From: an uncultured virus (IMG/VR IMGVR_UViG_3300027730_000821)
Taxonomy: Duplodnaviria > Heunggongvirae > Uroviricota > Caudoviricetes
Direction: 5' to 3' (one strand)
DNA: 20,000 nt
IMG/VR virus record: IMGVR_UViG_3300027730_000821
Coordinates: 52,535 to 72,534 of that record
Shown here: positions 2-18,180 of the stretch, piece after piece
Layout of the letters: every line of letters starts with the position of its first letter
Numbering within the stretch: position 1 is the stretch's first letter
Notes under the pieces: generated by a model
Told to the model about the DNA's origin: nothing
Seen by the model: only the letters and a program-made list of their open reading frames with translations
Database searches by the model: none
Made by a program: the position numbers and the translations under genes

Positions 2-619
2 GTAGTCCTTGCTAGTGATCGCGAAGAAGTCGTAGAAAACAGTATCCGAGAATTCGAATATCATGTTGACATGGCACGTTGGATGGGCTATGGCAAGACT
101 TTTCAGGACATGAAGATCAATGTTCATATCAGTGGTCGTCAGGGCCCCGACGGTATCAAGAAGGTAATGTCTCGACTAAGCCCCGAGGCTCGTAATTGCA
201 TCACTATCGAGAATGACGAGATGACTTGGGGTATCGATAGCAGTCTAGAACTCGCTGATACCTGCGCTCTCGTACTAGATATCCATCATCACTATGTAAT
301 GACTGGTGAATATATCGAACCCAATGACGACCGTATCAAGCGCGTGATCGATAGCTGGCGTGGTGTACGTCCTGTCATTCATTACAGTGTAAGTCGTGAA
401 GAATATTTGTCATCACATCTTACTAATGAATTGCCTAACCTTCAACTTCTGCTAGAACAAGGGTTGAACAAGCAGAAGTTGCGGGCACATTCTGACTATA
501 TGTGGAATAAAGCAGTCAATGATTGGGCTAAAGGGCACTGGGATTGGGCAGATGTTATGGTGGAGGCAAAGGCCAAGAACCTAGCTAGCTTTAGATTGTA
601 TGATTATTGGAAGAGCTAA
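2..619 (+). CDS. uvsE: UV DNA damage endonuclease (UVDE/UvsE family), 5'-truncated by the window edge
   Basis: The frame is open from base 2 (VVLASDREEVVENSIREFEYHVDM...). Motifs INVHISG, TIENDE, VLDIHHH, IHYS, RAHSDY and DVMVEAKAKNLA match the UvsE TIM-barrel metal ligands. Confidence 0.9.
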   Translation, partial: VVLASDREEVVENSIREFEYHVDMARWMGYGKTFQDMKINVHISGRQGPDGIKKVMSRLSPEARNCITIENDEMTWGIDSSLELADTCALVLDIHHHYVMTGEYIEPNDDRIKRVIDSWRGVRPVIHYSVSREEYLSSHLTNELPNLQLLLEQGLNKQKLRAHSDYMWNKAVNDWAKGHWDWADVMVEAKAKNLASFRLYDYWKS

Positions 620-2379: not shown

Positions 2380-2448
2380 AAAGACTTGACACCTATCCAT
2401 TAAGTGCGTGTATTAAAAATTGAACACAGAAATGAAAGTTTAATTGAT

Positions 2449-2820
2449 ATGCAAATTCGTCCTACTTGTATTAATCACGGCTGCAATCGCCCAGTTGCTA
2501 ATGACGGAAGTCGCTGGAGGCCTACCTGTTATCGATGCCATAAAGCAGGGTATGGGAAAGGTACTTTTGCTTTCGGCGTTACCCCATTTCGAACCGGTTA
2601 TTGCACTAACACTGATAGTCATTTGGGTTTTCCGTGCGCTATTGATTACAAAAAGGCACCGTGGGTAATAGGCAAAACGCACATTGATCATATTGACGGT
2701 AACCATTTAAATAATATTCTAGAAAATGTGGTTGAACTTTGTCCTCTCTGTCATCAATACAAAGGTATGCTTACCGGTGACTTTAAGAATCAAGGCGTGT
2801 ATCACTACAACAAAAAATAA
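2449..2820 (+). CDS. HNH endonuclease with Zn-binding Cys motifs
   Basis: HIDHIDGNHLNNILENVVELCPLCH is a canonical HNH. N-terminal CINHGC and CYRCH motifs. ATG 2449 follows GAAAG; the ORF track starts at GTG 2404. Confidence 0.85.
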   Translation: MQIRPTCINHGCNRPVANDGSRWRPTCYRCHKAGYGKGTFAFGVTPFRTGYCTNTDSHLGFPCAIDYKKAPWVIGKTHIDHIDGNHLNNILENVVELCPLCHQYKGMLTGDFKNQGVYHYNKK

Positions 2821-2878: not shown

Positions 2879-3883
2879 ATGAAATATGCACTGATCGACA
2901 CGGCTAATACCTTCTTTCGCGCTAGGCACGTTGCGTCTCGCAACACTGACACGTGGGAAAAAGTAGGAATGGCGATGCACCTTACATTGTCGTCTGTCAA
3001 TCAGATGGTACGTAAGTTTGGCATCGATCATGTCGTGTTCTGTCTCGAGGGTCGTTCTTGGCGTAAGGACTTCTACAAGCCATACAAGGCTAATCGAGTA
3101 AAAACTGACGCGACCGAGGCTGAGATCGAAGAAAATCAGATGTTCTGGGAAACGTACGAATCGTTTACTACGTTCATTCGTGAGCGCACAAACGCTAGCT
3201 TACTACGTCATCCTACTGCTGAAGCAGATGACCTCATCGCCCGCTTCATCGCACTGCACCCCGAAGACGAGCATTTCATTATTTCTTCCGACACTGACTT
3301 TGTTCAACTGATCGCACCTAACGTAAAGCAGTACAACGGTGTTGCTGGTCAGTTGATCACACTTGAGGGTTACTTCGATGATCGCGGTAAGCCTGTCAAA
3401 GATAAGAAGACTAAGGAACCTAAATTGCTTGAGGATCCTGAATATCTATTGTTCAAGAAAATCATTCGTGGTGATGCATCTGACAACGTGTTCTCTGCAT
3501 ATCCTGGTGTTCGTGAGAAGGGCACAAAGAATAAGATCGGCATTGTCGAAGCATATGCTGATCGCAACAAACAGGGCTTTAATTGGAACAATCTGATGTT
3601 GCAAAGCTGGATTGACCACGATGGCGCTGAGCATCGAGTTAGGGATGATTACGCGCGTAATCGTACCCTGATCGATCTGACAGCACAACCGCAAGAAATT
3701 AAAGATATGGTTGATCAATCAATACGCACAGGAGTAAAGACCGAACATGTACCGCAAGTCGGCGTGCAACTTATGAAATTCTGCGGTAAGTATGAGCTTA
3801 CTAAAATAAGCGAGCAAGCCGAGACTTATTCTAAGTGGCTCAACAACACCTACAAGGGAGTTTTGCTTGACGAGTCGGTATGA
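2879..3883 (+). CDS. rnh: T4-like RNase H / 5'-3' exonuclease (FEN/PIN fold)
   Basis: LIDTAN, SWRKDFYKPYKANR, EADDLIA, IISSDTDFVQL, GDASDNV and RNRTLIDL motifs. Confidence 0.92.
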   Translation: MKYALIDTANTFFRARHVASRNTDTWEKVGMAMHLTLSSVNQMVRKFGIDHVVFCLEGRSWRKDFYKPYKANRVKTDATEAEIEENQMFWETYESFTTFIRERTNASLLRHPTAEADDLIARFIALHPEDEHFIISSDTDFVQLIAPNVKQYNGVAGQLITLEGYFDDRGKPVKDKKTKEPKLLEDPEYLLFKKIIRGDASDNVFSAYPGVREKGTKNKIGIVEAYADRNKQGFNWNNLMLQSWIDHDGAEHRVRDDYARNRTLIDLTAQPQEIKDMVDQSIRTGVKTEHVPQVGVQLMKFCGKYELTKISEQAETYSKWLNNTYKGVLLDESV

Positions 3884-6834: not shown

Positions 6835-7494
6835 ATGGCTCGTTATCAGGCTCCGAAGATTTCTTATTCGACTGACGAAGTGTTTGCCGCTGCTTGTGCA
6901 GCACAGCGCATCAACGGCGAATATCTTAAGGACGACAAGATTCTGTATGATACTGATGGGCATGTCGAGAAGGTTGAGAAGATCGCTAACAAGAAGCTGA
7001 CTTCTCAGTTTCTTCGCGGTGACTTTGACATCAACGATGAGGACCGTGCACTGGGACAAGAAGTGCGTCAGTACTGTAACTCCCTGACGTTCAAGATCCT
7101 GCAGGGAAAGACTCTGAGTGATTTTGAGCAAGTTATGCTCAGTGTTGCTGACAAAGAGACTGTTGACAGCTTCTACGAGATTGCTGTTGTTTCGTCTCTC
7201 CCTGCTTCGTATGAGCGTTATAAAGCTCGTGCAGAAACTGATCGCCGTGTCCGTGACACGAATGGTTTTGTTGGTGACATGGGTGATAGGGTTGATCTCA
7301 AAGTTAACGTAGTGAAGTGTTTTTATTCTCGTAACTGGAACGTATATTTCATTACTGCGATCACTGAAAATAATAAGTCTGTGTTTTTCAGCAGCCGTAA
7401 TCAGATTGATATCGGCAAGTCGCTGAATGTTAGGGGTACTGTTAAGTCTCATTGTGATGGGTCTTCTCAGCTTTCCCGTGTTAAGGTTCTCTGA
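6835..7494 (+). CDS. Phage protein with C-terminal OB-fold (putative nucleic-acid binding)
   Basis: 219 aa; FVGDMGDRVDLKVNVV...VFFSS....IGKSLNVRGTVKSH....QLSRVKV resembles an OB fold; SD AAGGA. Confidence 0.65.
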   Translation: MARYQAPKISYSTDEVFAAACAAQRINGEYLKDDKILYDTDGHVEKVEKIANKKLTSQFLRGDFDINDEDRALGQEVRQYCNSLTFKILQGKTLSDFEQVMLSVADKETVDSFYEIAVVSSLPASYERYKARAETDRRVRDTNGFVGDMGDRVDLKVNVVKCFYSRNWNVYFITAITENNKSVFFSSRNQIDIGKSLNVRGTVKSHCDGSSQLSRVKVL

Positions 7495-7504
7495 ACCTTA
7501 AAGT

Positions 7505-7595
7505 GGGTGTTCGTCAAACACGAATGGTCTTTCGTAAAGTGGGTCTCCCTTTAAAGGGTTGTAAATTCCCTAAGTGGACTGTTTGACGAACACCC
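7505..7595. repeat. 16-bp perfect inverted repeat enclosing a 59-nt structured core
   Basis: GGGTGTTCGTCAAACA (7505-7520) / TGTTTGACGAACACCC (7580-7595); inner palindrome CCCTTTAAAGGG (7547-7558). Confidence 0.85.
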
Positions 7596-7623
7596 AACTA
7601 TCATTTATATTATTAAAACAGCC

Positions 7624-7833
7624 ATGAACAACAGCAAAGAAAACACATTTAGGGCCTTGCGTGATGAGGAATTGCTTGTGAGCAGTTTTTGGTGTAGGTT
7701 TGGTTGGCACAGTTGGACCAAATATCGTGAACCTGAAAAAGTCCGCGAAAATGTATACGTTCCGAGTCATATCCAGGAACGTCGATGCGCCTCGTGCAAT
7801 AAGCTTAATCGCTGGCGCATACCCGATCTTTGA
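7624..7833 (+). CDS. Small Zn-ribbon-like hypothetical protein
   Basis: 69 aa; CRFGWHSW...RRCASCNK. Confidence 0.65.
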   Translation: MNNSKENTFRALRDEELLVSSFWCRFGWHSWTKYREPEKVRENVYVPSHIQERRCASCNKLNRWRIPDL

Positions 7834-7835
7834 AC

Positions 7836-7864
7836 TTGACATCAACCTAATTTGATAGTATACT
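7836..7864 (+). promoter_or_regulatory. sigma70 promoter of the ligase N-half
   Basis: TTGACA, 17 bp, TATACT; SD AAGGAG before ATG 7883. Confidence 0.75.
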
Positions 7865-7882
7865 ATAATTCAAGGAGCACTC

Positions 7883-8707
7883 ATGTCGGCATCGTGGATT
7901 AACGCACTCAACAGTAGCGATTCTCGCATTCACAAAGAACACATTATCAGTCAGGCGCTAACAGCAGCATTACTTGGCAACACAACTGCTAAGTTTTTTC
8001 TTAATATGCTGAAGCTTTGTTATGATCCATACATCGTGTTTGGGGTAAGACAGATACCAGAAACTTTTGGAATTACTGATGCAGAAAACCCTTGGGACGA
8101 GTTTGGCGATCTTACTGTAAAGCTCGGCACTCGTGAACTCACCGGACATGATGCACGTGACGCTATCCAAACAATGGCAGACCGATTCGACAGTGACGAG
8201 TGGAATACTTTTCTTGCTCCCGTTTTGCGGCGCGACATACGCTGTGGCATATCGTCAACCACAATCAACAAAGTTTGCAAAAAGACAGAGTACGAAATTT
8301 CAGTTTTTGGGTGTCAACTGGCAACCAATTCTGAAGGCAGACCCGAGATGACCGGTATCAAACGTCTCGAACCTAAACTTGATGGCTGTTTAAGTTCAGA
8401 TTGGGTAGTTGAGTTTGAAGATGGCAGTAAAGTCACAATCAAGGAAGTAGTTGACAACAAATTAGCAGGTAAGGTCAAATCATACAATATGATTACCGGT
8501 AAGGTCGAATTTAACGAAATTACCGGCTGGGCGGTGGACGGAATTGATGACTCGGTCGATGATTATGAATGGTACGAGATAACATTAGAGAACGGTAAAA
8601 CTTTGCCACCGCTAACGGGTAATCATTTGGTCTATCTTCCTAAGTTAAAATGCTATCGTAGAGTAGACTTGCTAACTGACAATGATGAATTATTAGAGCA
8701 CATTTAA
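7883..8707 (+). CDS. lig: ATP-dependent DNA ligase N-terminal part (168 aa) fused to split-intein N-fragment (106 aa)
   Basis: Ligase N-domain (RRDIRCGISSTTINKV, CQLA) ends in motif I EPKLDG. Intein block A CLSSDWVVEF follows at 8387, block B LTGNHLVY comes later, then a stop. Confidence 0.92.
   Translation: MSASWINALNSSDSRIHKEHIISQALTAALLGNTTAKFFLNMLKLCYDPYIVFGVRQIPETFGITDAENPWDEFGDLTVKLGTRELTGHDARDAIQTMADRFDSDEWNTFLAPVLRRDIRCGISSTTINKVCKKTEYEISVFGCQLATNSEGRPEMTGIKRLEPKLDGCLSSDWVVEFEDGSKVTIKEVVDNKLAGKVKSYNMITGKVEFNEITGWAVDGIDDSVDDYEWYEITLENGKTLPPLTGNHLVYLPKLKCYRRVDLLTDNDELLEHI
8387..8704 (+). mobile_element. Split intein, N-fragment (IntN)
   Basis: Cys1 directly after KLDG; TxxH block B (TGNH); acidic composition; no block F/G before the stop. 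Confidence 0.9.
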
Positions 8708-8730
8708 CCATCTAATTTCTGCTACAGGCA

Positions 8731-8750
8731 TAAATAACTATTATAGGAGA
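8731..8750 (+). promoter_or_regulatory. Late promoter TAAATA and SD for the intervening endonuclease
   Basis: caTAAATA 8731-8736, AGGAG 8745-8749, ATG 8756. Confidence 0.6.
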
Positions 8751-8755
8751 TTATT

Positions 8756-9610
8756 ATGCCGGTATGTCATATATGTGGAAAAATAGTGAGGAACATTGAC
8801 TATCACCTAATAGGTGAACAGTATAAGGATAAGATCAGTGATATGATACTAGCAGGATATTCTATCTTGTACCTATCCAAGAATTCGTTGACCTTATTCG
8901 GAGAGAAAATATCATATGACATGATATCTACAACCTGCAAGCACCACGGTATTAAAATACCCAGTTTAAAAGATACTGCAAACAGTAGAATAACACGAGA
9001 TTTGTATAAGTCTACTGTAGAAAAAACATATGGTCATGGAATAACCAATGTATCTCAATCCAAACTAATCAAAGAAAAGAAAAATAATACAAACTTAGAT
9101 AGGTATGGAGTAATAAATCCGTTTCAACGAGAAGAAGTAAAGCAAAAATCAAAAGAAACCCTATATAAAAAATACGGAGTTCTTAACCCAGTTGAACTGC
9201 CATAGTATACCAAAAACAATGGGAGATTCTCTAAACCTCACAAAAAAATATCAGATTTCCTACATACTCTGACTATAGAACACGACAATGACAAAGCTGG
9301 TCTATTTAGAAAATTTAATGACGAGTTAAAAAGAACGTATTCACCTATCCCTGATATTTTTATTCCTGATAAAAATGTCGTAATAGAAATATTCGGTGAT
9401 AGATGGCACATGAATCCAAGAATATACCACGAGTCTGATGTTGTCGTGTTTTTTGACGGTCCGTGTACGGCCGCTGAGGTCTGGTTAGGTGATGAAATAC
9501 GAAATAACCATATCCGCTATTTTGGGGTTGACATAATTGTAATTTGGGAATATGATATCAAATATCACTTTGAAGACATCAAACTAATGCTAACTGAAAG
9601 ATTGACATGA
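8756..9610 (+). pseudogene. Free-standing Vsr-like/EDxHD-type homing endonuclease interrupted by one in-frame TAG (9203-9205)
   Basis: The frame stays open after the TAG: ...VELP*YTKNNGRFSKPHKKISDFL...SPIPDIFIPDKNVVIEIFGDRWHMNP...DEIRNNHIRYFGVDIIVIWEYDI. The N-half has a CHIC motif and repeated KYGVxNP-type DNA-binding modules. ORFs 8756-9205 and 9410-9610 share the frame. Confidence 0.85.
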
Positions 9611-9723
9611 CCACCCTAAAAATCAAAAGTATTAAAAAACTACCTCCAACCAAAATGGCACGGTATGACATACAAGTAAAGAATACCGAAAACTTTTTTG
9701 CAAATGGGGTGCTAGTCCACAAC
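9607..9723 (+). mobile_element. Split intein, C-fragment (IntC)
   Basis: Basic N-terminus, block F (YDIQV...NFFANG), block G terminal HN, +1 Cys at 9724. Confidence 0.92.
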
Positions 9724-10569
9724 TGCCGTGTTCTACTAGTAGTGCAAGTTCTTGACAGCGGGGCACATGTCACATGCTATAGCCGTAATGGTAAGGTATT
9801 TGAAAACTTTAACCACATCGAAAAACAAGTACTTGATAACTTACCTGAAATGATTGCTGCTAGGCATGAGGTAGGAGGCCTTGGGGCAGACCTAACTCTT
9901 GGATTTGTGCTTGATGGTGAAGTTGTGGGTAATAGTTTTCAAGAACTGATGCGCCAGGCTCGTCGTAAAGAAAATGTTGCGAGCGAGGACAGTGTGTTTC
10001 ACGTATTTGACATTATTCCTATTCTTGATTTTAGCAGGGGATACTGGAACGCATCCCTGACCAAACGTCTCGCATTGCTTGACGCAATGAAGTCTGCCAT
10101 TGACAAGATGTCCAACCTAGAATTACTTCCACATCTACTTGTTGATCTTACTACACTCGAGGGCAGAAATCAGCTTGATCGTTATGCAAAAGATATGGTT
10201 ACTGCTGGATTTGAGGGCATCATGATCAAGGATCTTGCGACCTCGTATGAATGTAAGCGTAACACCGCCTGGATGAAGTACAAGCCCGTGCATGATTACG
10301 ACCTCACTGTAATCGGTGTGGAATCCGGTACCGGAAAGAACAAGGACAGAATGGGAGCATTGGTCTGTGAAGGAATGGACGACGGAAAACACATTGTAGT
10401 CAATGTGGGTAGCGGGTTTACTGATGCTGAACGACAAGAATATTGGGATAACCGAAACGATCTGATCGGGCGATCGGTGGTAATTATGGCAGATGCGATA
10501 ACTCTTAATCAAAACGGCACTTATAGTCTACGTTTTCCTAGATTTAAATCATTTCGATATGACAAGTGA
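9607..10569 (+). CDS. lig: Split-intein C-fragment (39 aa) fused to the ATP-dependent DNA ligase C-terminal part (281 aa)
   Basis: MTTLKIKSIKK...YDIQVKNTENFFANGVLVHN|CRV..., then ligase motifs YSRNGK, VLDGEVV, FHVFDI, FEGIMIKD, WMKYKP, VGSGF and SLRFPRF. Confidence 0.93.
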   Translation: MTTLKIKSIKKLPPTKMARYDIQVKNTENFFANGVLVHNCRVLLVVQVLDSGAHVTCYSRNGKVFENFNHIEKQVLDNLPEMIAARHEVGGLGADLTLGFVLDGEVVGNSFQELMRQARRKENVASEDSVFHVFDIIPILDFSRGYWNASLTKRLALLDAMKSAIDKMSNLELLPHLLVDLTTLEGRNQLDRYAKDMVTAGFEGIMIKDLATSYECKRNTAWMKYKPVHDYDLTVIGVESGTGKNKDRMGALVCEGMDDGKHIVVNVGSGFTDAERQEYWDNRNDLIGRSVVIMADAITLNQNGTYSLRFPRFKSFRYDK

Positions 10570-10578
10570 GGAACTAAA

Positions 10579-10758
10579 ATGTCTGGTTTAAATATTATTT
10601 TCGAAGAACTACCTCAACGCTGCGAAGGTTGTGGTATTATTGCAGAGACTCGACCGTTTGGCATCAATCATGAAGAAATCTGCTTTGATTGTGCTATGAA
10701 GGATGAAGCGGTTACCCAGATACGCATGAAGGAGTTTTTGTTTGGTGACGAAGAATGA
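10579..10758 (+). CDS. Small Zn-finger protein (59 aa, not in the ORF track)
   Basis: MSGLNIIFEELPQRCEGCGIIAETRPFGINHEEICFDCAMKD...; SD GAGGA; CxxC...CxxC. Confidence 0.75.
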   Translation: MSGLNIIFEELPQRCEGCGIIAETRPFGINHEEICFDCAMKDEAVTQIRMKEFLFGDEE

Positions 10759-10997
10759 ACGAGAACACTGACAATATAGAAGGTTGGGAAGAAGATCCAG
10801 TCGATTACCTAGAACTTCAAAAGATGGTCGGTAAGAAATATGTTTTCGAAGACGGTGACAGTATTGAGATCGTGCAGATCAAACGTAGAGAGACTGGTCC
10901 ATGGGTAACATATCATGTTCAGCAAGGACCGGGTATTCCCAGAAAGTTGTTGATGATGCTCGACGAATTTCATATTACATATGGTCATCTGTTTTAA
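10755..10997 (+). CDS. Hypothetical protein
   Basis: 80 aa, ATGA-coupled to the upstream gene. Confidence 0.75.
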   Translation: MNENTDNIEGWEEDPVDYLELQKMVGKKYVFEDGDSIEIVQIKRRETGPWVTYHVQQGPGIPRKLLMMLDEFHITYGHLF

Positions 10998-11032
10998 ATC
11001 CAACAGAAACAGAAAATTAGACTAAATAGCTA

Positions 11033-11164
11033 ATGACACTTTATGCATACAAATGGACTCGCCTATCTACAGACAAATGGTATGTAGGATCCCTCACTAT
11101 GGCCGTGACCTATCCAAAATTTGGATATCGTTGCTCCAGCAGGGAAAACACAAATGATATTTAA
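11033..11164 (+). pseudogene. Truncated GIY-YIG endonuclease remnant (43 aa)
   Basis: MTLYAYKWTRLSTDKWYVGSLT...GYRCSS resembles the YxYxW...WYIGS...GYxCSS start of phage GIY-YIG nucleases; TAAATA at 11023-11028. Confidence 0.55.
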
Positions 11165-12701
11165 TGCCATCGTACTGCTAGTTGCCCTGTTTATTTCCGC
11201 AATTAGTGCTTTCTATTCCATCACTGGTTTGGCCGTCATCTTTTCAGCGGCAGCAGTGCCAGTGATGGTTATGGGAAGTGCATTAGAGTTAGGTAAAATC
11301 ACGGCGGTGGTATGGCTTCACAAATACTGGACCAAAGCCGGATGGGCGCTGAAATCGTATCTAGTGCTGGCAGTTGTGTCATTGATGCTAATCACCTCTA
11401 TGGGGACATATGGATATTTGGCAAAGGCTCACAGTGACCAGACTTTAGTAAGTGGCGACACCGCTGCTAAAGTTGAGCTAGTTGATGAAAAGATCAAGAT
11501 TTCGCGCGAAAACATTGCCATGAGCCAAAAGGCTCTTGAGCAAATGAACAGTCAGGTTGATCAGTTATTGGGTAGAACCGACGATGACAGGGGTGCTAAT
11601 CGTGCGATTCAGGTTCGTAGGCAACAAGCCACCGAACGCAATCGATTAATACAAGAGATAGAAGCTGAACAAGCTGAAATAGCAAAACTTAACGAAGAAG
11701 TTGCGCCCATTCGTGCCGAGATTCGCAAAGTTGAGGCCGAAATAGGTCCGATCAAGTACATCGCCGCAATGATATACGGTGACGACCCAGATACTAATTT
11801 ATTAGAACGCGCGGTACGTTGGGTTATCATTCTTCTCGTACTAGTGTTTGATCCACTGGCGCTTGCACTTATGGTAGCTGCACAGAGCAGCTATAAATGG
11901 TTAAATGAAGATTTAGCAAAAAATCAAAATGAAGATAAATCCACAGATAGTATAGAAGTTTTGCCATCCGCAGAACAGTCTAAACCTAAAGTTCAGGAGG
12001 ATGTTGTTCCGAAGGAAGAAAAAACGGAATCACTAGAACACGAACTTCTAAAAACAACCGAGATAGAATTAATACCAGAGCCGGTATTAATTATAAACGA
12101 TATTTTCCCTTATGCAGAGGATGCATACAATGATGCTAAACCTATACCAGAGCGCAATGAAGCGCTACCTGTTGATTTCGATGAACCAATTAGAGAAGAG
12201 CCTGACGAAACATCTTTGGCCGTCTCAGGTAAAGATGTGGAACGATTGGGTGAGCCTAAAAACGAAACTGAAAAACGACATAGACTAGCAGAACCCAGCA
12301 TCAAGACTGAAGGGGTAACTTTACGGTCTACCGGTGGTGACTATGTAGAATATGACGGAAAATCTATGAGTACAGCAGCACTAAAGACGATGCGCCCTGA
12401 TTTATTTGCCATTGTTGCGGATATAGATCATCCTATCAATACTAATTTTGGAACACAGTTTCCCAAGATTGCACAAAAAGGAGACGTGTTTGTGCGTGTA
12501 GATATGTTACCGAATCGTGTTTATAAGTTTGATAGCTATAAATGGATAGAAATTAACAAAGAACAATCTGATTCTTATTTGTATGATGATGCTTATATAA
12601 AACACCTTATTGCCCAAATCGAACGAGGCGAATATGATGTTGACTTGCTGACCGAAAACGAAAAGTTACAAATAGAAGAATACATCAAAAAAGATACCTA
12701 G
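11154..12701 (+). CDS. Membrane protein with coiled coil (DUF4407-like) and a C-terminal soluble domain
   Basis: About 3 N-terminal TM helices, a coiled coil, a further TM (VIILLVLVFDPLALALMVAA), an acidic linker and a FGTQFP...GDVFVRVDMLPNRVYKFD..KW domain. ATG 11154 after AGGGA is preferred over TTG 11121. Confidence 0.7.
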   Translation: MIFNAIVLLVALFISAISAFYSITGLAVIFSAAAVPVMVMGSALELGKITAVVWLHKYWTKAGWALKSYLVLAVVSLMLITSMGTYGYLAKAHSDQTLVSGDTAAKVELVDEKIKISRENIAMSQKALEQMNSQVDQLLGRTDDDRGANRAIQVRRQQATERNRLIQEIEAEQAEIAKLNEEVAPIRAEIRKVEAEIGPIKYIAAMIYGDDPDTNLLERAVRWVIILLVLVFDPLALALMVAAQSSYKWLNEDLAKNQNEDKSTDSIEVLPSAEQSKPKVQEDVVPKEEKTESLEHELLKTTEIELIPEPVLIINDIFPYAEDAYNDAKPIPERNEALPVDFDEPIREEPDETSLAVSGKDVERLGEPKNETEKRHRLAEPSIKTEGVTLRSTGGDYVEYDGKSMSTAALKTMRPDLFAIVADIDHPINTNFGTQFPKIAQKGDVFVRVDMLPNRVYKFDSYKWIEINKEQSDSYLYDDAYIKHLIAQIERGEYDVDLLTENEKLQIEEYIKKDT

Positions 12702-12734: not shown

Positions 12735-13952
12735 ATGCCAGATAAACTTCAGTATTGTTCTTTCTGCGGGACGCACAAAGACAATGTAACTAAATTGATT
12801 GTGGGCGACGACGCGGCTATATGCAGCGATTGCATTGCATTATGTAACCAACTTGTTATCAACGAGCAAGCAGAGGAACCAGTAGCCGCTGAACCTGAAA
12901 GTTTTGATGCATATAGTATTAAGAAACATTTAGATCAACATGTTATTGGCCAAGACGCTGCTAAAGAAGTGTTGGCAGTTGCTATAGCTAATCATTATAA
13001 AAGAATCACATATCCGTCAACCGACCTAGAGATTCGAAAAGGAAATGTATTGCTTGTTGGTCCTACAGGATCCGGCAAGACCTTGATCGCCCGAGCAGTT
13101 GCGAAGTATCTAAGTGTTCCGTTCGTGGTTGCTGACGCGACTAGTTTAACTGAATCAGGGTATGTTGGCGAAGACGTAGAAAGTATGATTAGTATGCTCT
13201 TGGCTAGTGCAGGCGGTGATGTTGCATTAGCAGAGAGAGGTATCGTCTTCATAGATGAGATTGACAAGGTGTCACGTAAAAGTGAAAATGCTTCTGTTAC
13301 GCGCGACGTAAGCGGAGAAGGCGTTCAGCAAGCACTATTGAAGATGATCGAAGGGACGACGTGCCGTGTGCCAGTAACCGGCAAACGCAAGAATCCACAA
13401 GGAGATATGATTGAGGTCGACACTAAAAATATTCTCTTTATTGCCGGAGGCGCCTTTACGGGCCTTGATCTTATAATCAAAAATAGAATTCAGGGTGCTT
13501 CGATCGGGTTCGTGCAAAATATAAAGACTAAGGATAAGAAAAGTAGTGCTGTCACTCCAGATGATCTGATCAAATTTGGAATGATTCCTGAATTTATCGG
13601 CAGATTCACTACGACTGTTGCATTGAACGAACTTACAGTAGACGAATTGATTTTGGTACTGACCTCAGTAAAAAACAATTTTATCGACCAATTCACGCAT
13701 CTATTTAAGATAGACAACATTAAATTGTCTTTCACTGACGAAGCTATAGCACAGCTTGCGCAGCGGTGTATAGAGTTAAACGTTGGGGCGCGTGGTCTTC
13801 ATACTGAGATAGAGCGAGTATTGATGCCAGCGATGTTCCACGTTAGCAAGTTTAGAGAACACGGGGTCACTGAATTAATAATCACTACTGAACACATCAA
13901 GGATCCTAGTTTAGTAATAGCAAAATATCTTTTACCTAAAACTGGTGTTTGA
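12735..13952 (+). CDS. clpX: ATP-dependent Clp protease ATP-binding subunit ClpX
   Basis: C4 Zn domain CSFC...CSDC, Walker A GPTGSGKT, GYVG pore loop, Walker B IVFIDEIDK, RDVSGEGVQQALLK, IGF loop, GARGL. Confidence 0.97.
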   Translation: MPDKLQYCSFCGTHKDNVTKLIVGDDAAICSDCIALCNQLVINEQAEEPVAAEPESFDAYSIKKHLDQHVIGQDAAKEVLAVAIANHYKRITYPSTDLEIRKGNVLLVGPTGSGKTLIARAVAKYLSVPFVVADATSLTESGYVGEDVESMISMLLASAGGDVALAERGIVFIDEIDKVSRKSENASVTRDVSGEGVQQALLKMIEGTTCRVPVTGKRKNPQGDMIEVDTKNILFIAGGAFTGLDLIIKNRIQGASIGFVQNIKTKDKKSSAVTPDDLIKFGMIPEFIGRFTTTVALNELTVDELILVLTSVKNNFIDQFTHLFKIDNIKLSFTDEAIAQLAQRCIELNVGARGLHTEIERVLMPAMFHVSKFREHGVTELIITTEHIKDPSLVIAKYLLPKTGV

Positions 13953-13983: not shown

Positions 13984-14077
13984 TTTACAACTACCGAAAT
14001 TTCTTGTATAAATAACACAGTAGGGTGCTTTTAAAGGCTCTACTGTCATTATTTGCTTAAAGGAGAAATAATATGAC
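13984..14077 (+). promoter_or_regulatory. Overlapping sigma70-like and late promoter, 5' hairpin and ROSE-like SD-sequestering stem
   Basis: TTTACA, 17 bp, TATAAATA (14007-14014); ACAGTAG/CTACTGT stem (14017-14046); TTGCT (14053-14057) next to AGGAG (14061-14065). Confidence 0.6.
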
Positions 14078-14531
14078 TAATTCACAACTAACCCTTCGTT
14101 CTTTGGATATTCCGAACTTGCATAAATTTGGAATTGGATTTGATAACATCTTTGATGAACTATCGCGAATCAATGCACAACAAGCAAATGCTCCCAACTA
14201 CCCTCCATATAATATCATAAAGCACGATGAAGATCACTTTTCTATCGCGCTAGCTATTGCAGGATTTACGCCAGAAGATGTTTCCATCACGCTAGAGAAG
14301 AAAATTCTTACAATCAAGGGCGAGCAACGTCAACCCCTAGATGATTTAGAAAAAGAAACTGAATACTTGCACCGGGGTATTTCGGCGCGTAACTTTGTTC
14401 GTACTTTTACGATTGCAGAACATGTTGAAGTGATAAGTGCGGAAGCAGAACACGGCATCCTCAATATAAACTTGAAGCGTGAAATACCTGAAGAGCAAAA
14501 ACCAAAGAATATACCTATACAGCAGAAATAA
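14073..14531 (+). CDS. hsp20: Small heat-shock protein (Hsp20, IbpA-like)
   Basis: IGFD, NYPPYNI, IALAIAGF, YLHRGISARNFVRTF, HGILNINL and C-terminal IPI motif. Confidence 0.96.
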   Translation: MTNSQLTLRSLDIPNLHKFGIGFDNIFDELSRINAQQANAPNYPPYNIIKHDEDHFSIALAIAGFTPEDVSITLEKKILTIKGEQRQPLDDLEKETEYLHRGISARNFVRTFTIAEHVEVISAEAEHGILNINLKREIPEEQKPKNIPIQQK

Positions 14532-17595: not shown

Positions 17596-18180
17596 ATGTC
17601 TAACTTAGTTCCAATGGTAATCGAACAGTCCAGTCGTGGCGAAAGAGTAATGGATATCTACAGTCGATTACTAAAGGACCGGGTGATTCTTTTAGAGGGG
17701 GAAGTCAATGATTATATGGCTAATCTCATCGTTGCGCAATTGCTCTATCTTGAATCAGAAAATCCCTCCGCCGACATCTCACTTTACATCAACAGCCCAG
17801 GTGGTTCGGTGACTGCTGGATTAGCTATTCTTGATGCTATGCAATTTGTCAAGTCAGACATTTCTACTATCGCAATCGGAAGTGTCTGTTCAATGGGATC
17901 ACTTCTAGCAAGTTCCGGCACCAAAGGAAAGAGATTCATTCTTCCTAGGGCTCGCCACATGGTGCACTCTGTGTCCGGCGGTTCTCGTGGCACGATATGG
18001 GACGCTGAAATTCAAATGGAAGAAATGGTTCGATTGAATAATCTTCTCACTGAGATTTATGCAACTAATACTGGCAAGACCGTCGAAGAACTTAAGATTG
18101 CTATGGCACGTGACAACTATATGGACGCTCAAGCATCTGTCGAGTTTGGACTAGCGGATAAGGTTCTTGTTTCTCGATAA
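17596..18180 (+). CDS. clpP: ATP-dependent Clp protease proteolytic subunit ClpP
   Basis: [25 protein letters not shown] and [12 protein letters not shown]; catalytic Ser (CSMGS), His (MVHSV) and Asp (RDNYM). Confidence 0.97.

Follow-up and report, generated by a model that had tools for sequence, protein, structure and literature searches.

Phage genes fractured into two halves, each joined to one part of a split intein and separated by a free-standing endonuclease gene, were described in 2009 by Dassa et al. (PMC2677866). The available parts of that paper report 26-27 fractured loci in eight enzyme types, with one DNA ligase locus from freshwater Lake Gatun, and under 'DNA ligase' its Supplementary Fig. 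S1 has a C-intein and no N-intein. Here we describe a locus of this type in a stretch of 20,000 nucleotides (nt), called the window, which covers positions 52,535-72,534 of the 72.5-kb IMG/VR record IMGVR_UViG_3300027730_000821 (G000). Coordinates are window positions unless another locus is named. The preliminary description of this DNA had rightly recognized in it the layout already known for fractured phage genes. We read the locus as a fractured gene for an ATP-dependent DNA ligase, belonging to a large uncultured phage of lake water; the gene product would be restored by protein trans-splicing and the intervening endonuclease gene would be dead. We put the probability of this reading at about 0.82. 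The kind of element and its DNA ligase host have been in print since 2009, and general knowledge on inteins is left unchanged. What this locus adds is the N half, which completes the intein pair, an allele with an empty insertion site, an endonuclease gene that appears freshly inactivated, a candidate internal promoter, the size of the family, and a second fractured gene in the same phage.

Ligase halves, empty-site allele and split intein

The ligase is encoded by two open reading frames, ORF1 and ORF2 (Table 1). Their matches to PHROG 114 (ATP-dependent DNA ligase) occupy consecutive profile positions (residues 6-169 of ORF1 versus positions 95-250, expectation value (E) 4.8e-20; residues 49-320 of ORF2 versus positions 259-501, E 1.9e-64); hence ORF1 and ORF2 encode successive portions of a single ligase. 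In Pfam, ORF2 matches DNA_ligase_A_M (PF01068; E 2.4e-12) and DNA_ligase_OB_2 (PF14743; E 1.5e-11). The hallmarks of such a ligase are present: an adenylation domain, an OB domain, and motif I (KxDGxR), which is split as KLDG|CR. The fracture thus sits inside motif I, three residues past its lysine, which we take to be the adenylated residue on the basis of what is established for KxDGxR motifs. ORF1 reads ...LEPKLDG up to the junction and continues with CLSSDW...PPLTGNHLVYL...DELLEHI, and ORF2 starts with MTTLKIKSIKK...NFFANGVLVHN followed by CRVLLVV. A blastn search with positions 7000-11500 found no match among 50,697 phage records.

The insertion could be delimited by comparison with an allele that lacks it. 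The 81.9-kb contig L003, whose flanks are 89-93% identical to the window, carries a single uninterrupted ligase of 449 amino acids (aa) (LEPKLDGVRVLLVV) with the motif KLDGVR. This protein matches the solved ATP-dependent DNA ligases 6RAU, 6RAR and 6RAS (E ~4e-96), with its KLDGVR aligned on theirs. The DNA alignment between the window and L003 is interrupted at window positions 8386 and 9727. The empty site of L003 reads ...CTTGATGGC|GTGCGTGTT... (CTTGATGGC|GTGCGT at the junction), the occupied N junction ...GATGGC|TGTTTAAGT... (GGC|TGTTTA) and the occupied C junction ...GTCCACAAC|TGCCGTGTT... (CACAAC|TGCCGT). Because of this junction comparison the insert is defined to the base as 8387-9723 (1337 nt). 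The codon that follows it is GTG (Val) in L003 and TGC (Cys) in the window. The 84 nt upstream of the insertion are all the same in the two alleles (84/84), and downstream 56 of 60 nt are shared, three of the differences being those of the Val-to-Cys codon. Over the full exteins the DNA identity is 95.6% for the N-extein (L003 4494-4997) and 96.6% for the C-extein, and their 168 and 281 residues add up to 449, the length of the uninterrupted L003 ligase. These data bear out the anatomy proposed in the preliminary description, namely a ligase cut in motif I at EPKLDG|CRV, an acidic 106-aa N-intein with Cys1 and TGNH, a basic 39-aa C-intein and a joined product of 449 aa. The comparison with intein-less alleles that it had called for fixes both boundaries. 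The L003 allele also gives the native extein context (KLDG / C-R-V) exactly, together with the likely target sequence of the endonuclease.

The two intein halves have opposite charges. The N-intein has a net charge of -10 and an isoelectric point of 4.47, and the C-intein a net charge of +5 and an isoelectric point of 10.12. They were aligned with those of the ligase loci L082, L084, L085, L087 and L165 and of two loci with another host protein (L166 and L167). Cys1 (Cys169 of ORF1, codon 8387-8389) is invariant in 8/8 aligned relatives, as are Thr, Asn and His of the block B sequence TGNH. In the C-intein the residues Y, D, F, A, N, L, H and N, which include the penultimate His and the terminal Asn, are the same in all 9 relatives. 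At +1 the seven ligase loci have Cys, whereas L166 and L167 have Thr. The residues canonical for class 1 splicing of inteins (Hint superfamily) are all present. A profile of the N-intein family matches the solved NrdJ-1 split intein (8UBS) with E 5.8e-12 across 99 positions, the window N-intein as a single sequence reaching only E 0.018 against the same structure. The C-intein matches several solved inteins (best E 3.5e-5, the rest weaker; E 0.053 versus NrdJ-1). The complex between the N- and C-inteins, predicted with an alignment for each half, scored 0.73, compared with 0.02 for the best of three controls; the mark used for this score is reached by 116 of 157 solved complexes and by 2 of 215 mismatched pairs. 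This outcome supports association of the halves. The prediction runs agreed in at least 93% of the contacts, and the predicted local distance difference test value (pLDDT) of the partner was at least 72. Between the N-intein and its counterparts in five other fractured loci, nonsynonymous differences amount to 0.10-0.38 per site and synonymous differences to a saturated 0.77-0.93; the latter make the ratio of the two rates (dN/dS) mostly not computable, and raw proportions are given for that reason. These values indicate purifying selection on the intein halves. Judged from the sequences, trans-splicing of the window halves is very likely.

In the mechanism that we propose, a mobile cassette made of the N-intein, a spacer with control elements, the endonuclease gene and the C-intein is inserted in motif I (KLDG|xR), exactly after Gly168 and before residue 169. 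The two ligase halves would be synthesized as separate proteins, and the acidic N-intein and the basic C-intein would associate to form one Hint fold. Cys1, Thr and His of block B, the terminal His-Asn and Cys+1 would then carry out protein trans-splicing to yield a 449-aa ligase with KLDGCR as motif I, neither half alone having a complete adenylation domain. The endonuclease would formerly have spread the cassette into intein-less ligase alleles. Since the ligase depends on them, the intein halves would stay under selection.

Charge-complementary halves and a confidently predicted interface would also be found if the halves associated without splicing, leaving the ligase as a non-covalent two-piece enzyme. 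There is a precedent for such a rescue of a fractured phage enzyme in the fragmented ribonucleotide reductase of Aeh1, as presented in the accessible sections of PMC3045599. We hold this arrangement to be very improbable for the ligase. The residues required only for splicing (Cys1, Thr and His of block B, the terminal Asn, and Cys+1) are invariant despite saturated synonymous divergence. Cys+1 replaces the Val found in 78/78 classified uninterrupted alleles, a change that is expected only if the +1 nucleophile is used. Moreover, an unspliced intein of 145 residues would sit within motif I beside the presumed adenylated lysine.

ORF1 and the endonuclease gene share the same frame, as they also would if a single contiguous intein with an endonuclease domain had been broken by an assembly or sequencing error. 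Next to no weight can be given to such an artefact. Three stops in this frame (8705, 8735, 8744) precede the endonuclease ATG, the third being followed by a Shine-Dalgarno sequence (AGGAG) and the separate ATG, ORF2 lies in another frame, and the same three-gene layout recurs in five further diverged loci. The stop at 8705-8707 and the frame change, for which a check against assembly error had been set in advance, are real on the evidence of the assemblies. Another IMG/VR contig (L002; 47.7 kb) matches the window without difference over 10,960 nt (100% identity), including the TAA and the TAG discussed below. Record 1 of the lake-water run assembly X1 covers positions 7800-10650 with zero differences, and records 7 (8558-9161) and 8 (9167-9557) of X12, a run not marked as a possible source, show none either. 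The exact ORF1 protein is recorded from 11 contigs. Note that the samples may share one campaign: these are separate assemblies and not fully independent populations. The contigs listed for a different study from 2024 (X13) cover the N junction and the C-intein; they end at 9193 and restart at 9210, leaving the TAG uncovered.

Record 17 of X13 (window 9559-10312) shows no difference in the C-intein or in the initial 230 nt of the C-extein, and 24 differences from 9960 on, which suggests a recombinant or mosaic ligase allele with the same intein. Record 25 of X14, from a further lake-water run, is a contig of 20.9 kb with a match limited to the end of the C-intein (9691-9725); its loose ends resemble ...KYDLEIQDNH... 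before the match and C-RAIVSKKGI after it. It represents a further allele of the intein, inserted at this ligase site in a different phage.

Table 1. Positions of the parts of the fractured ligase locus, its putative control sites and neighbouring genes in the window.
Feature	Position	Strand	Remarks
ORF1	7883-8707	+	274 aa; ligase residues 1-168, then 106-aa N-intein; TAA at 8705-8707
N-extein	7883-8386	+	ligase residues 1-168; C-terminal end is motif I ...EPKLDG
N-intein	8387-8704	+	106 aa; Cys1, block B TGNH; edges set by comparison with L003
Spacer	8708-8755	+	48 nt; CATAAATA at 8729-8736, AGGAG at 8745-8749, hairpin
Endonuclease gene	8756-9610	+	284 codons, 855 bp; Vsr-like (EDxHD-type); one in-frame amber codon
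Amber codon TAG	9203-9205	+	codon 150; between DNA-binding region and nuclease domain
ORF2	9607-10569	+	320 aa; 39-aa C-intein, then ligase residues 169-449
C-intein	9607-9723	+	39 aa; C-terminal ...LVHN; own ATG overlaps endonuclease TGA (ATGA)
C-extein	9724-10569	+	Cys+1 (TGC, 9724-9726), then ligase residues 170-449: remaining adenylation domain and OB domain
Sigma-70-like site	7836-7864	+	TTGACA-17-TATACT, 11/12; 19 nt upstream of ORF1 start
Sigma-70-like site	9528-9556	+	TTGACA-17-TATGAT, 11/12; in endonuclease 3' end, 51 nt upstream of ORF2
UvdE-like UV endonuclease	2-619		window neighbour gene
Small HNH endonuclease	2404-2820		directly upstream of the 5'-3' exonuclease gene
5'-3' exonuclease	2879-3883		upstream of the ligase locus
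ClpX-like protein	12735-13952		window neighbour gene
ClpP-like protein	14073-14531		window neighbour gene
Hsp20	17596-18180		window neighbour gene

The endonuclease gene and its amber codon

A nuclease gene of about 850 bp had been announced between the two ligase halves. The gene is there and is of the homing-endonuclease type, but it is not open, being interrupted in frame by a TAG codon. Translated with X at this position, it matches Pfam DUF7487 (E 2.4e-11) and PHROG homing endonuclease families. Among 280 candidates in the protein collection 21 relatives were found at E <=0.001, several of them labelled very-short-patch-repair endonuclease by their source databases. Seven intact relatives have exactly 284 aa; the closest full-length relative is 86% identical, and identity reaches 87% overall. 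The column of the TAG codon holds Trp in 7 of 14 aligned homologues, and among the eight closest there are seven with Trp and one with Cys. The closest intact homologues have Trp (TGG) at the amber position. A single G-to-A change (TGG to TAG) would account for the stop.

The amber codon is located 3' of repeated YGV.NPFQ modules and 5' of an otherwise intact PD...E..GD.WH...D core, in which the family alignment shows no variation at P199-D200, E211, D215, H218 and D228. The next start codon in this frame, at 9410, falls beyond this core. Since the TAG precedes the core and the next start follows it, the predicted product is a 149-aa fragment without nuclease domain. The reading frame is intact in the five complete fractured loci L082, L084, L085, L087 and L165 and interrupted in the window. 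The endonuclease is thus probably inactivated and the cassette probably immobile in the window phage. In searches of the Protein Data Bank (PDB) the best matches of the endonuclease family profile were Vsr endonucleases, with a weak E of 0.11, and the structure of I-Bth0305I was not returned; the nuclease domain alone (9206-9607), used as a single sequence, gave only a chance-level match (E 0.19). The weak Vsr matches agree with the Vsr-like or EDxHD family of homing endonucleases, which is described for fractured genes and has I-Bth0305I as its prototype.

It might be that the endonuclease is still made and the cassette still mobile, codon 150 (UAG) being read through with the help of a suppressor transfer RNA (tRNA) of the phage or its host, or of its sequence context. 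The frame is otherwise intact, all family-invariant residues are kept, and the record is estimated to contain just ~21% of the genome. Genes for tRNAs are common in large phages. We consider readthrough unlikely, given that no tRNA gene is found in the 72.5 kb, that TAG terminates 13/73 long ORFs, that no other + strand gene has a single in-frame TAG between long open stretches, and that a change from Trp to amber is the simplest one-base knockout. In 11 places of the record a single stop separates two open stretches in the same frame, each of at least 80 codons, and the endonuclease gene is the sole + strand TAG case among them. Three - strand TAG cases of this set lie opposite + strand genes, the + strand carrying most genes. 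A general reassignment of TAG was rejected on the same counts of tRNA genes (0 in 72.5 kb) and of TAG-terminated ORFs (13/73).

Distribution, probable past mobility and putative control elements of the cassette

The ligase is uninterrupted, with the motif KLDGVR, in 78 of the 80 closest loci in IMG/VR; one of the others (L002) has the genotype of the window and one (L081) is broken. The fractured three-gene layout with an intact endonuclease gene is complete in the five loci named above and partial in L086. The ligases of these five loci are 23-66% identical to the window ligase. In the protein collection 53 clusters, defined at 90% identity, match the N-intein, and 52 of them show the KxDG|C junction, a 100-115-aa tail after it, and TGNH. 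When these proteins are compared in pairs, conservation is higher in the N-intein than in the ligase N-domain for 1311/1326 pairs (means of 62% vs 42%), one pair having N-inteins 99% identical and ligases only 51% identical. These comparisons indicate that the cassette spread horizontally among diverged ligase genes. They also qualify an earlier suggestion that the intein might be uncharacterised. Our literature search found no experimental characterisation of the ligase split intein, only the 2009 paper and reviews, within a coverage that left out most subscription journals; the ligase host, however, has been in print since 2009, and 52/53 clusters have the same junction. The 52-cluster family constitutes a good data set for intein mobility among phages.

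Some relatives depart from the common layout. L081 (2364-3652) has a ligase relative in two ORFs with the motif I region missing and with neither intein nor endonuclease. A deletion, decay to a pseudogene or faulty assembly may lie behind this. L085 carries at 892-1215 an extra 107-aa fragment resembling a ligase N-terminus, ~800 nt upstream of its fractured ligase. Related split inteins are found in L166 (1885-4561) and L167 (2773-4585), with N halves 42% and 38% identical and spacers of 55 and 64 nt. No endonuclease gene lies between their halves, and their host protein is different from that of the ligase loci. Their junction (...EK|C...HN|TDGQN) looks like a KxDG nucleotidyl-transferase motif interrupted right behind its Lys, and their C-terminal halves matched no Pfam family at E 0.001. 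The 196-aa protein P0074 matches Pfam RNA_lig_T4_1 and Intein_splicing and has a related N-intein (49% identical) with TGNH and no KxDG|C by pattern.

The insertion might instead have destroyed the ligase, the phage relying on the enzyme of its host or on another ligase of its own. Relatives can indeed break, as seen for L081 with its lost motif I region, the endonuclease of the window is already decaying, and 79% of the genome is outside the record. A dead ligase is nevertheless highly improbable in our view. The two extein parts are complete and open, with a DNA identity of 96% to the uninterrupted allele, 52 protein clusters preserve the same split, the intein halves have far fewer nonsynonymous than synonymous differences, and tblastn detected no second ligase in the 72.5-kb record.

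Promoter-like sites were searched by consensus matches only. Across the 72.5-kb record, sigma-70-like matches of at least 11/12 were found 10 times on the + strand and once on the - strand, compared to 1.3 +/- 1.2 in 100 shuffles, which suggests that the phage uses host-type promoters. Nearly all of these matches have a 17-nt spacer, and those in the window are at 2824, 6774, 7836 and 9528. In L082 the two hexamers of the site at 9528-9556 are conserved although the sequence between them has synonymous changes, L084 has a 9/12 match, and the site is absent in L085, L087 and L165. A terminator scan identified none between the genes of the locus. ORF2 probably has its own predicted promoter inside the 3' end of the endonuclease gene. 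The amber codon need not lower the expression of ORF2, and hence of the ligase, because ORF2 may be transcribed independently. The endonuclease 3' end overlaps the C-intein ORF by 4 nt (ATGA), the overlap being 4-32 nt in five relatives.

The spacer preceding the endonuclease gene can fold into a hairpin in which GGCATAA (8727-8733) pairs with TTATGCC (8754-8760, holding the endonuclease ATG). The Shine-Dalgarno sequence is in the loop and CATAAATA in the 5' arm. The latter is a 7/8 match to the late-promoter-like sequence TATAAATA, which is found as such in L084. The hairpin is kept in L082, L084 has a different perfect inner stem of 7 bp, and no such structure is present in L085, L087 and L165.

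It is conceivable, at a tentative level, that the locus is an intermediate in which a mobile fractured gene is turning into a fixed split intein that lacks an endonuclease. The endonuclease remnant would then be kept for the ORF2 promoter in its 3' end and for the late-promoter-like hairpin in its 5' leader, and L166 and L167 would represent the end state. A fixed split intein without endonuclease is known from cyanobacterial DnaE. If this were true, related phage populations with empty, live-endonuclease and dead-endonuclease alleles would allow the split-intein homing cycle to be followed in nature.

Several points weigh against reading the locus as a trans-spliced ligase with a dead endonuclease gene in a formerly mobile cassette. 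The Pfam matches to the intein halves are below threshold: Hint on ORF1 residues 165-255 (E 0.0015) scores 18.6 bits versus a curated cut-off of 29.7, and Intein_splicing on ORF2 residues 5-39 (E 7.5e-6) scores 26.3 bits versus a cut-off of 35.8. The score of the predicted complex may reflect likeness to solved split-intein complexes and not binding by the window copy. In the comparison with L003 no co-conversion tract from a diverged donor is apparent beside the insert; the comparison does not demonstrate that the cassette came in recently from a distant donor, and the invasion in the window's own lineage cannot be dated from these sequences. The higher conservation of the intein could partly reflect constraint and not transfer. 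Taken alone, the spacer hairpin of the window is not significant (z -0.58; 57/200 shuffles fold as well), and YATAAATA is not enriched in the window, with 5 occurrences versus 2.9 expected and 37/200 shuffles reaching 5. Finally, with the record ~21% complete, the remaining genome could encode a suppressor tRNA or a further ligase.

Phage context and comparison with described systems

The completeness of the record is estimated at 21%, and ligase relatives (L006 and L035) sit on contigs of 333 and 335 kb, which points to a jumbo phage of roughly 335 kb as the source. Genes neighbouring the ligase locus in the window are included in Table 1. Outside the window, the same record has a second fractured gene, coding for a family B DNA polymerase (G000:C1 33643-37535, equivalent to L168 643-4535). 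This polymerase is split in motif C (...VYGD|S... at the N-intein and ...LVHN|TDS at the C-intein). Its halves are separated by an intact gene for a Vsr-like endonuclease of 320 aa (35614-36576) that overlaps the ORF of the C half. The N half matches the Pfam families DNA_pol_B, DNA_pol_B_exo1 and Intein_splicing, the last with 38.1 bits, above the cut-off. Two replication enzymes of this phage would thus need protein trans-splicing to become complete.

As a tool candidate, the window intein is a Cys1/Cys+1 relative of NrdJ-1, the splicing of which was reportedly measured by Carvajal-Vallejos et al. in 2012. The preliminary description had supposed it to be an orthogonal split intein. This finds no support: its N-intein profile matches NrdJ-1 (E 5.8e-12), and its C-intein motif is common to NrdA-2 and NrdJ-1, so that orthogonality to these two cannot be assumed. 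NrdJ-1, which belongs to the same 2009 set (8UBS, 9OMB), provides the closest solved structure to the window intein. The two have in common an acidic N half of similar length and a basic C half; they differ in the host, which is a ribonucleotide reductase for NrdJ-1, and in the +1 residue, Ser in NrdJ-1 and Cys here. That the last C-intein motif is shared with the NrdA-2 and NrdJ-1 C-inteins was noted by eye in the accessible supplement of PMC2677866.

The ligase locus of Lake Gatun is the nearest described counterpart. According to the sections of PMC2677866 at hand, the two loci have in common the enzyme type, the three-gene layout, a freshwater viral origin and Cys+1. The Lake Gatun C-intein has the same ...NFFANGVLVHN|C end (11 residues plus Cys), and 15 of the last 21 positions are identical by eye, a count that carries no score; on the printed sequence, the two C-inteins clearly appear allelic. 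The 48-nt spacer of the window is within the range of 27-51 nt given there, and its fold resembles the hairpin with late-promoter element reported for 15/16 endonuclease leaders. The overlap between endonuclease gene and C-intein is 4 nt here versus 6-69 bp in 15 loci of that set. For the Lake Gatun ligase the most similar enzyme is that of phage Felix 01 and a 5'-3' exonuclease gene lies downstream, whereas in the window the exonuclease gene is upstream. The window further differs by its complete intein pair and by the amber codon in its endonuclease gene.

The endonuclease gene itself is comparable to I-Bth0305I as presented in the parts of PMC3239194 available, with N-terminal repeated DNA-binding modules and a C-terminal Vsr-like nuclease domain; I-Bth0305I, unlike the window gene, resides in a group I intron of recA. 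In its overall plan the locus also resembles nrdA-a / mobE / nrdA-b of Aeh1, where, by the accessible account in PMC3045599, an essential phage gene of DNA metabolism is split by a free-standing homing endonuclease gene with its own control elements. The Aeh1 case differs from the window in having no intein, its halves assembling without splicing.

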